Source: an uncultured Planctomycetales bacterium
GTDB taxonomy: Bacteria > Omnitrophota > Gorgyraeia > Gygaellales > Profunditerraquicolaceae
Direction: 5' to 3'
NCBI GenBank assembly: GCA_964354795.1
Contig: CAYHBB010000037.1
Location: forward strand, 46,197 to 110,196
Length of the DNA stretch: 64,000 bases
In this document: positions 41,262-48,722 of the stretch, one piece after another
How positions within the stretch are numbered: position 1 is the stretch's first letter
Layout: each line of letters begins with the position of its first letter
Notes under the pieces: model-generated
Seen by the model: the letters and a program-made list of their open reading frames with translations, nothing else
Database searches by the model: none
Told to the model about the DNA's origin: nothing
Position numbers and translations under genes: made by a program

Positions 41262-41492
41262 TTATTTCACAAAATTCCCCTTCTTACTACTAACCGCCTT
41301 AGTAAAGATACATATAATTCGATAGACAACATACAATAAAACAAAGAAAATCAATATTAAATACAAAGGAATACCTAGCAATTCTACACCACCCATTAAA
41401 AGTGGATCATTATAAAAACATCTTGCTAATAGAAAAGCAAATAGAAAAAAAATCATTATAATTAACACCTCTCTAATTATACCTCTTCTCAT
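41262..41492 (-). CDS. Small 2-TM membrane protein (76 aa) immediately downstream of the Rhs toxin; candidate immunity protein
   Basis: Two hydrophobic helices; position 53 nt after the toxin stop; very AT-rich. Confidence 0.45.
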   Translation of the reverse strand: MRRGIIREVLIIMIFFLFAFLLARCFYNDPLLMGGVELLGIPLYLILIFFVLLYVVYRIICIFTKAVSSKKGNFVK

Positions 41493-41544
41493 ATTTAATC
41501 CCTTATATAATCCTGTAAATATAAAACCTGATCATATTGTCTAA

Positions 41545-42457
41545 TTAATGTGCATAATGATCAATACCTATAGGCGTAGTTCCTAAGTTTTCTGGCGCAT
41601 TCCCACCTGCCCCATAAATAACGGTATTTACCGCAAAATTACTATTGCAATTATAAAAACTATATGGCGTCCCTACCCACGCAGCTTTAAAAAGATTAAC
41701 AGAGTTATTATAGCCAGCCTGGCTTACCGAAACATTAGACTCTAGAGTAAGCTGAGGGTATTTACTAATATAAACTGATGTTCTCCCAAAAGAACCTTCG
41801 CCATTTAACTCAATAAGTTTTGAGTGAGCATCTGGTCCCATCTCAAAGTGATCAACCTCGCCCCTAATATATCTATGTCTAAATAAGCCAGGCTTATCAG
41901 GCGGACCTAAAGGCCGAGACCCAACTATCGCCGTAGTTTTATCAGCCCTATTTACGCTTAACGCATGAAGTCTCTTTATACCTGACTGATACGCTTGCTC
42001 CCTGCTCATTCCGTGTGCAAAATTCTGCATACCGCTTAAATAACTACCTTCAATTAATCCTCCTACCGCTGCCCCTATGCCAAAGCCTATACCACCAGCT
42101 TTCATCGCGTCACCAAAACTTTCACCAGAACCTAATGCTCCACCAAAGCTACCCCCAAAACCTCCTATGCCCATCTCAGTAGCGCCTACAAGAAAACCAC
42201 CCCCAAAGCTAAAAGCCTTCTTCCCCAGAAAACCAGCAACCTTATCCCCTAAAGCACCACCAGCCCAACCTCCCAAAATACCACCTGCTAACCCACCAGC
42301 AAATCCACCCCAATTCCCTGTCTTAACCGCTGACCCCAAGGAACTAAAGAAATTAAATATTTGGAAACCTACCATCATATTACCGCCACTAAGCACAGTA
42401 CCAACTATTCCCGCAACAACACCAACAATTGCTCCCCAGAACTTGCTAAACCAACTA
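41545..42457 (-). other. C-terminal ~302-aa region after the RHS-core DPSGH motif: glycine-zipper-rich segment (GGFAGGLAGGILGGWAGG...) plus ~160-aa unassigned putative toxin domain
   Basis: Position relative to the DPxGH autoproteolysis-type motif at 42458..42472; lower GC than the RHS body by eye. Confidence 0.5.
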
Positions 42458-48186: not shown

Positions 48187-48188
48187 AG

Positions 48189-48722
48189 CTATTTTGGCGC
48201 TGCTACAGGTTCACGGAAAATGCAGTAATCGCCTTTCTTAGTCCATCCAGCAGAAAGGCCGTAGTCATCCCTAACATATAGGTAAGTATTTTTGACCCCA
48301 CTGAAAGGGGTTTTAAAAGTAATACACCACTTTATGGTAAGAGTGTTTCCCGAGCCAGCGTAAGTCGTAAAAAGACAGCTGAGCTTTACGTATGAATTCT
48401 CAACGGTATAGCCGCTTTTAGGAGCATATCCGCCCAGCCATTTAGTATTCGCGTCATCGCGCAGATACAATTTGTTGGTATTCTGGTCATAGTAGGCGTA
48501 AAAACACCTGGCTCCTCCGATAGAACTATCGATGAGGAAATAAGCATACTGAATATTTTTCCAACCGTTGGGGTCAGAATACGTTGTAGTGAAAGTTATG
48601 GCTTGATTTGAAGTAGAATAACCGATAGCAGGAGAAACAGTGCCCAAGGAAGGAGCTGAATTTGCAGCTAAGGCGCTACTGGTGAAAAGGAAGATTAGCA
48701 AAAATAAGGCAAGACGCCTCAT
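48189..48722 (-). CDS. Small secreted protein (signal peptide, beta-rich, Tyr/Thr-rich), first gene of the toxin operon; function unknown
   Basis: MRRLALFLLIFLFTSSALA signal; AAGGTGG SD; stop 3 nt before the toxin start. Confidence 0.5.
   Translation of the reverse strand: MRRLALFLLIFLFTSSALAANSAPSLGTVSPAIGYSTSNQAITFTTTYSDPNGWKNIQYAYFLIDSSIGGARCFYAYYDQNTNKLYLRDDANTKWLGGYAPKSGYTVENSYVKLSCLFTTYAGSGNTLTIKWCITFKTPFSGVKNTYLYVRDDYGLSAGWTKKGDYCIFREPVAAPK

Follow-up and report, generated by a model that had tools for sequence, protein, structure and literature searches.

How do toxins built from an SpvB domain, a beta-propeller and an RHS shell leave diderm cells and enter their targets when no TcA partner accompanies them? 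The locus described here bears on this question. It lies in the 64-kb stretch of DNA analysed (contig CAYHBB010000037.1; the window, in whose numbering coordinates are given unless another locus is named), where three open reading frames (ORFs) were verified on the minus strand: 48189-48722, encoding 177 amino acids (aa), 41545-48186 (2213 aa) and 41262-41492 (76 aa). The three genes are a single bracketed operon, which probably encodes a Sec-exported polymorphic toxin of the BC type (a TcB-TcC fusion), most likely serving inter-bacterial competition. The genes form one unit because a promoter-like site precedes them, gaps of only 2 and 52 nt separate them and a terminator hairpin follows. The elements around the toxin gene are as follows.

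48756..48784, minus strand: sigma-70-like promoter candidate TTGAAT-17-TATAAT, 10/12, 34 nt 5' of the 177-aa ORF (consensus match only)
48189..48722, minus strand: 177-aa secreted beta-rich accessory protein, signal peptide MRRLALFLLIFLFTSSALA; fused in relatives
41262..41492, minus strand: 76-aa inner-membrane protein with two transmembrane (TM) segments, candidate cognate immunity protein by position and co-occurrence
41188..41236, minus strand: intrinsic-terminator-like hairpin, stem of ~25 bp, then UUUAUUUU, directly 3' of the 76-aa ORF

The stop codon of the 177-aa ORF is separated from the ATG of the 2213-aa ORF by 2 nt (TAG-CT-ATG), with a change of frame, and 52 nt lie between the 2213-aa and 76-aa ORFs. 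An earlier note on this DNA had rightly placed a small secreted beta-rich protein upstream and a 76-aa two-TM ORF downstream; the gaps it gave, 3 and 53 nt, need correction. An AAGGGA sits 7 nt ahead of the ATG of the 76-aa ORF. The terminator hairpin has a free energy of -35.2 kcal/mol (z -8.5), and none of 200 shuffled sequences is equally stable (0/200). The 177-aa and 2213-aa ORFs were also considered as a single gene broken by a frameshift. This reading was rejected, because both ORFs have separate signal peptides and the split is kept in a related metagenomic contig (L001).

Scaffold and class of the 2213-aa protein

The 2213-aa protein consists of a secreted scaffold followed by a two-module cargo, arranged from the N-terminus to the C-terminus as listed.

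48103..48186, minus strand: signal peptide, aa 1-28, cut AFA/K, as read from the sequence
47101..47889, minus strand: SpvB/TcB N-terminal domain, aa 100-362 (profile and solved-structure matches)
46012..47064, minus strand: six-bladed FG-GAP (integrin-like) beta-propeller, aa ~375-725 (six DxNGDG motifs)
45724..46122, minus strand: TcdB_toxin_midN, PF12256, aa 689-821 (profile match, 2e-27)
43498..45699, minus strand: RHS/YD-repeat shell, aa ~830-1563 (profiles and structure matches)
42943..43497, minus strand: ~185-aa shell insertion, aa 1564-1748, two beta-rich units ahead of the C-terminal plug
42457..42942, minus strand: last YD repeats and Rhs-associated core/plug, aa 1749-1910 (TIGR03696 and motifs)
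42037..42456, minus strand: glycine-zipper hydrophobic pre-toxin module, aa 1911-2050 (composition, motifs, relatives)
41548..42036, minus strand: C-terminal toxin tip, aa 2051-2213 (rare family, conserved residues, AlphaFold2 model)

The N-terminus, MKIFF...DVAFA/KG (MKIFFKVLSLILVFIHLFTVCFRDVAFA/KG), has the appearance of a type I signal peptide, and full-length relatives share a signal-peptide-like start. SpvB (PF03534) matches aa 100-281 at 5e-27, the NCBIfam SpvB model covering aa 102-362. FG-GAP and FG-GAP_3 both match, the six D[LI][NTD]GDG motifs beginning at aa 383, 446, 514, 594, 647 and 701. RHS_repeat matches at 1.5e-38, together with YD_repeat_2x, and the Rhs_assc_core model TIGR03696 matches aa 1831-1910 at 4e-21. 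Every profile for which the earlier note had proposed a search (SpvB, FG-GAP, RHS_repeat, TIGR03696) is thus matched, and its description of a signal peptide, an SpvB domain, six propeller repeats, an RHS shell and a payload of ~300 aa is borne out, the cargo measuring 303 aa. The core contains R1866, D1887 (YDPQS) and D1906 (VDPSGH). Its end is formed by NPINYVDPSGHS at aa 1900-1911, in which NPINYVDPSGH (aa 1900-1910) fits the PxxxxDPxG cleavage motif, and an autoproteolytic cut is predicted after H1910.

The closest solved structure is the TcdB2-TccC3 fusion (7e-41), followed by Rhs shells from type VI secretion systems (T6SS), YenB/YenC2 and a bacterial teneurin-like protein (TLP). Together with the domain matches, this upholds the TcB-TcC cocoon architecture that had been read from the sequence. 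Photorhabdus TcdB2-TccC3 and Yersinia YenB-YenC2 (PDB 4o9x, 6h6e, 4igl) share the same domain order and a DPxG-type double-Asp Rhs core, and the 303-aa cargo falls inside the range of 201-400 aa reported for TcC hypervariable regions (PMC7861908). In contrast to these BC proteins, the window protein is one polypeptide instead of two, carries a Sec signal peptide, has no TcA nearby and is followed by a co-varying downstream gene, and its relatives carry Rhs-style orphan cassettes.

This architecture has a name. Zhang, de Souza, Anantharaman, Iyer and Aravind (2012; PMC3482391) defined the 'TcdB/TcaC' class of polymorphic toxins by a signal peptide, SpvB, an integrin-like propeller, RHS repeats, a variable tip and adjacent immunity genes, and papain-like tips are among those listed for it. 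The 2213-aa protein belongs to this class, every testable defining feature being present: the signal peptide as read from its N-terminus, SpvB, the propeller, an RHS core with PxxxxDPxG and a variable tip after the core. Orphan cassettes are common in the class, not obligatory, and the window contains no orphan toxin-immunity cassette and no other immunity family. Because the architecture with its immunity genes was catalogued in 2012 (PMC3482391), the earlier estimate of novelty was too high, and the locus leaves existing knowledge of the class unchanged. What is not annotated in Pfam and not found in the literature consulted is the set of parts: the rare His/NSN tip, the glycine-zipper module, the shell insertion, the accessory beta-domain and the three neighbour families described below. 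The H...NSN tip family is not found in the text of PMC3482391; the term 'glycine zipper', the only other module looked for there, is likewise not found.

Two further toxin classes share parts of this plan. BiTLP (PDB 9pt5, 9ifo) belongs to a Sec-dependent sister class of YD-shell toxins with downstream immunity genes, a class validated experimentally; it resembles the window protein in its Sec-dependent YD shell, its cleaved polymorphic C-terminal toxin, its downstream immunity gene and its varying N-terminal adhesion modules, and one cargo of that class is hydrophobic and membrane-active (PMC13018210). TLPs are defined by an FN-plug, an NHL propeller and a YD shell (PMC13018210), whereas the window protein combines SpvB with an FG-GAP propeller and midN, and its match to BiTLP is confined to aa 1748-1938; it is not a TLP. 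Nor does it belong with the T6SS Rhs effectors, since neither PAAR nor VgrG is matched in the protein or the window. Tse5 resembles it in placing a hydrophobic, membrane-inserting and pore-forming cargo inside an Rhs cocoon (PMC10684867), and differs in being PAAR- and T6SS-dependent, in lacking SpvB and the propeller, and in having a pore-former as its cargo with no extra enzymatic tip.

The match to TcdB2-TccC3, the best among solved structures, raises the alternative that the protein serves as BC subunit in a true Tc (ABC) toxin directed at eukaryotes, with its TcA encoded elsewhere in the genome and the 76-aa ORF unrelated to immunity. SpvB, propeller and midN form the TcA-docking half of Tc toxins, and the genome is viewed through only 64 kb. 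A cleavable signal peptide, as predicted here, does not suit this alternative, and an ORF of TcA size is present neither in the window nor in the 15.8 kb and 26.6 kb analysed of the related loci L001 and L008, which also show no TcA, T6SS or CdiB gene. Pfam scans of the non-toxin ORFs of at least 120 aa detect no TcA, VgrG, PAAR or CdiB family in the window, where the largest other ORF has 697 aa; the absence of a TcA above 2000 aa, of VgrG/PAAR and of CdiB, noticed earlier, is confirmed by these scans, in which six ORFs matched no Pfam family. Natural BC fusion genes, mentioned in passing by Song et al., and orphan tcC genes do exist, yet none of the Tc loci examined there has an immunity gene (PMC7861908), whereas the downstream gene of the window co-varies with the tip and relatives carry Rhs-type orphan cassettes of a tip plus its neighbour. 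Membership of a eukaryote-directed Tc toxin is quite unlikely. The window system is not a canonical Tc toxin, because no TcA lies nearby and both a signal peptide and an immunity-like gene are present.

Two beta-rich modules accompany the Sec-exported toxin. In L008 the ~150-aa domain of the 177-aa protein forms an N-terminal extension of the SpvB-RHS protein itself (47% identity). It occurs as 8 tandem copies at the N-terminus of the relative P0038 and is also found within a 645-aa Big_7 protein encoded directly 5' of the L001 ortholog. Since relatives carry its domain on the toxin N-terminus, the 177-aa protein is part of the toxin system. It is probably a display or target-binding module, by analogy with the variable N-terminal adhesion domains of bacterial TLPs (PMC13018210). 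Its AlphaFold2 model, with a predicted local distance difference test (pLDDT) value of 41.6, is unusable.

The second module is the shell insertion, whose two units begin L.PGWNFISFP and L.PGCNLIFSP. Seven relatives (L001, P0025, P0027, P0033, P0035, P0061 and P0070) have it, at 30-63% identity, whereas L008 and P0038 lack it. A BLAST comparison of unit 1 with unit 2 gives no match; a single cross-match between the units in P0061 (E 5e-4) hints at a duplication. The insertion is a candidate external surface or receptor-binding module. Pfam searches find no family for the insertion, the 177-aa protein or the glycine-zipper module.

Cargo modules and tip exchange

The exchange of cargo is visible in a comparison with an ortholog. 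L001 encodes a 2219-aa ortholog that is ~65% identical along the scaffold and 100% identical over aa 1881-1910; beyond aa 1910 the identity falls to 0.2-0.37. This collapse right after VDPSGH (1910) is the hallmark of Rhs tip swapping. The tip of the L001 ortholog is a different one; behind it come a 352-aa neighbour and, further on, an orphan copy of the tip family of the window (P0001), which is N-terminally truncated, 69% identical to the window tip and equipped with its own downstream gene. A main toxin followed by orphan cassettes is the classic Rhs arrangement, and such cassettes are present in the relatives L001, L030 and L031. The closest relative from a species representative, at 37% identity, is L008, a locus of a metagenome-assembled Planctomycetia genome.

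The main tip of L001 is of a Cys type (...HDEFNCIGFYNYVL). The 352-aa protein encoded next to it (8551-9609) has an N-terminal hydrophobic segment, a faint Tricorn_2nd match in Pfam and a beta-propeller-like look; as an immunity protein it would be unusually large. A further gene pair lies beside orphan glycine-zipper toxin cassettes on two unrelated metagenomic contigs (L030 1855-2785 and L032 4021-4951). It encodes a 119/122-aa protein (67% identity) and a 192-aa NTP_transf_2/Polbeta protein, and resembles an MNT/HEPN-type toxin-antitoxin module.

The cargo of the window protein (aa 1911-2213) begins with the glycine-zipper module. This region of 139 aa contains 32% Gly, 33 [GAS]xxxG and 12 GxxxGxxxG motifs, and ends in GGLIEGSYLSGMQNFAHG. 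It precedes at least five unrelated tips (P0003, P0004, P0005, P0007, P0009, P0012, L008).

The tip belongs to a rare family. An exhaustive profile search of 1.84 billion proteins (E<=1e-3, counted as cluster representatives) returns 96 representatives, with the domain at the C-terminus in every case. All long carriers align with the window scaffold, and where the N-terminal region is included, the SpvB region is found in 6/6 and a signal-peptide-like start in 5/6. In an alignment of 104 members, conservation is highest at H2104, E2115, G2117, Y2175 and N2181-S2182-N2183, with H2104 kept in 78/80, N2181 in 96/97, S2182 in 90/97 and N2183 in 97/97. In the AlphaFold2 model of the tip (pLDDT 75, predicted template modelling score 0.75), the His belongs to a strand, and NSN sits at a helix N-terminus. 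The tip is read as a putative permuted papain-like, PPPDE/H-box-NC-like hydrolase with Ser at the Cys position, an assignment that is only moderately supported. PPPDE/DeSI-2 (2wp7), TseH (6v98) and PLAAT4 (7zot) are permuted papain-like H-box/NC hydrolases with Cys, whereas the window tip has Ser. No similarity to them appears at the sequence level in Pfam or the PDB: a Pfam search at E<=10 finds no known family, a PDB profile search gives chance Mip matches only, and Foldseek of the model against the PDB and BFVD finds nothing significant. An hhalign comparison with the Cys-type tip of P0012 aligns only the shared junction. Cys2180 (NCNSNF) was considered as a PPPDE-type catalytic Cys and rejected, Cys being present in 6 of ~97 members and the adjacent Ser in 90.

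Which of the two modules harms the target? The composition of the glycine zipper would allow it to be the toxin itself, a pore-former or depolariser like Tse5-CT or the BiTLP C-terminal domain, with the 76-aa protein blocking pore assembly and the tip being accessory or used for targeting. The Rhs cargo of Tse5 forms pores (PMC10684867), and the hydrophobic C-terminal domain of BiTLP permeabilises E. coli only when exported (PMC13018210). In L008 and L032, small membrane proteins follow glycine-zipper cargoes that end in unrelated tips, as this alternative would have it; the neighbour families nevertheless track tip clades, and P0008 has a similar zipper junction yet a soluble neighbour. The zipper is conserved where the tip varies, and orphan cassettes such as P0001 hold the whole tip with just the last ~25 aa of the zipper. 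The near-invariant His and NSN, with an enzyme-like fold in the predicted model, likewise point to the tip. A zipper acting as the toxin is unlikely.

Downstream neighbours and the candidate immunity protein

The 76-aa ORF has a basic N-terminus, two hydrophobic segments and a Lys-rich C-terminus, and the loop between the segments is predicted to be periplasmic because of the positive-inside rule. Its family comprises three homologs among 5.8 billion proteins. The first, 100% identical, is on an NCBI contig that is presumably the source genome itself. The second, 87% identical, occurs in L026 and L027 downstream of tips 95-97% identical to that of the window, and the third, 58% identical, lies in L029, where the tip upstream of it shows 67% identity. 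The ORF is a genuine conserved gene that stays with this tip over three independent steps of divergence. The best-kept stretch of the family, FYNDPLLMGG(V/I)EL.G.PLY, spans the loop and the start of TM2. Tsi5, the immunity protein of Tse5, is a small membrane protein.

Other tips of the family are followed by other proteins. Those of P0001 and P0002 (L001, L030) have four-TM neighbours of 119 and 122 aa, 51% identical to each other; those of P0008, P0010, P0011 and P0014 (L004, L005, L006, L031) have a soluble family of ~100 aa with DG[IV]SKEEAIIIAQNYL, mostly lacking a signal peptide. No homology is detectable among the small downstream membrane proteins of the window (76 aa), L001 (119 aa) and L008 (119 aa). 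Three unrelated neighbour families, each tracking a tip sub-clade, are the pattern expected of immunity genes. The 76-aa ORF is thus probably the cognate immunity protein, judged by its position and co-occurrence. Where the partner is soluble and apparently cytoplasmic, the tip may be able to enter the cytoplasm, in keeping with a glycine zipper that would serve translocation; where the partner is a membrane protein, protection may take place at the membrane step.

Could the 76-aa protein instead be a holin-like or export helper, or a small membrane gene that merely hitch-hikes? Its size, its two TM segments and its Lys-rich C-terminus resemble class II holins. A lysis cassette releases Yersinia Tc toxins (PMC10847048), but no endolysin or spanin gene is present in the window and the toxin carries its own predicted Sec signal peptide. 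On the side of this alternative, non-synonymous changes in the 76-aa ORF outnumber synonymous ones by 10 to 4. Two of the three members of its family, the third being the presumed source-genome copy, nevertheless stand directly after this tip clade, and other tip clades hold different neighbours at the same position, as expected of immunity genes. A role other than immunity is highly improbable.

Several observations weigh against a toxin-immunity operon of the kind preferred here. Toxicity, neutralisation and export of the 2213-aa system are predictions made from sequence, and a TcA gene may possibly lie elsewhere in the genome, beyond the window. The earlier note expected the 76-aa ORF to be conserved beside homologous tips; this holds in L026, L027 and L029 and fails for P0001, whose 69% identical tip has an unrelated membrane neighbour, and for the distant tips with their soluble ones. 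It follows that the neighbour family is no simple function of the tip. Between the 76-aa ORF and its L026 counterpart, 10 codon differences are non-synonymous and 4 synonymous, a ratio unlike purifying selection yet compatible with a fast-evolving immunity gene. In the tip, the position of S2182 is Glu in 4 and Asp in 3 of 97 members.

In the mechanism proposed for the Sec-exported toxin, Sec would export both the toxin and the 177-aa accessory protein. Once out of the cytoplasm, the shell would fold round its cargo, and the cut after H1910 would be made by the Rhs aspartyl protease (D1887, D1906). The toxin would then cross or decorate the outer membrane, with the 177-aa beta module and the 185-aa insertion serving display or target binding. 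On the target cell the cargo would be freed and the glycine zipper would enter the membrane, carrying or anchoring the tip, which would act as a His/Ser hydrolase of permuted papain-like fold (PPPDE, NlpC-P60 or LRAT type). In sibling cells the 76-aa protein would give protection at the inner membrane, by means of the conserved loop predicted to face the periplasm. A bolder version is put forward only tentatively: the BC cocoon would act without TcA, T6SS or the type V secretion system, the beta-domain and the insertion would target it, and the glycine zipper would be the translocon for a new His/Ser papain-like toxin. Acting on the periplasmic side of the inner membrane, the 76-aa protein would block this step; other loci pair the same toxin fold with soluble and four-TM partners. 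The locus is a compact, fully bracketed example that offers a clear experimental handle through its two cargo modules, its pair of candidate catalytic residues and the 76-aa partner. It also contributes a toxin domain family that is rare and unannotated and whose neighbours fall into three unrelated families.

Operon boundaries and the surrounding chromosome

The edges of the operon are marked by a repeated element, of which one copy stands alone.

48795..48809, minus strand: solitary left arm AAAGGGGACGGTTCT of the terminator hairpin element, just 5' of the operon promoter

The 15-mer AAAGGGGACGGTTCT occurs in 4 copies in the window against 0.09 expected. Each arm of the hairpin behind the 76-aa ORF consists of it, as does one arm of a second hairpin, which follows the ORF6N gene (40535-40549). 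With the solitary arm on its 5' side and the hairpin on its 3' side, the operon is bracketed by 15-mer copies; the placement at 48795-48809, 41188-41236 and 40535-40549 therefore brackets the operon and the ORF6N gene each. In the syntenic L026 the element occurs three times (4334-4388, 4962-5014 and 7107-7216), around extra cassettes that comprise a 254-aa lipoprotein-like gene, BrnT with a partner, a helix-turn-helix gene and a second ORF6N. The element may mark cassette junctions or a recombination site. Genes for Y1_Tnp transposases (IS200/IS605- or RAYT-like) adjoin truncated or orphan tip cassettes in 3/3 loci of the distant tip clade (L004 3717-4034, L005 4378-4968, L006 7657-8169). Y1 transposases act on hairpin DNA, and a relation to the 15-mer hairpin element of the window is possible, not established.

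Directly 5' of the operon, an ORF of 146 aa (48815-49255, minus strand) has a lipoprotein-like signal (…LSTC) and an acidic, Ser/Gly-rich sequence with SGNFD-type repeats. It matches no Pfam family, and both L001 and L008 lack a counterpart.

The rest of the window is chromosomal, with all genes on the same strand as the toxin operon. Upstream lie fmt, priA and lipopolysaccharide (LPS)/glycan genes, including two heptosyltransferases and an O-antigen ligase, which point to a diderm host with LPS. On the downstream side are the ORF6N gene, a pair of GalT-like genes, GAPDH and a nonulosonic-acid and amino-sugar cluster of very large size. Around the toxin locus, genes for cell-surface glycans make up a very large region (1672-34189 and 51985-63963). 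Among them are three NeuB paralogs (7697-8794, 11405-12412, 24125-25189), five DegT-type aminotransferases, two CMP-sugar cytidylyltransferases, the Wzy_C O-antigen ligase, the two heptosyltransferases and two B12-binding radical SAM enzymes (1672-3210 and 17544-19016). Three large ORFs of this region match no Pfam family (3239-5332, 13370-15313 and 15282-16841). Between the ORF6N gene and GAPDH, at 38438-40462 on the minus strand, the two GalT/HIT-like (DUF4921, DUF4931) nucleotidyl transferase paralogs stand in tandem, and the pair keeps the same order in L026.

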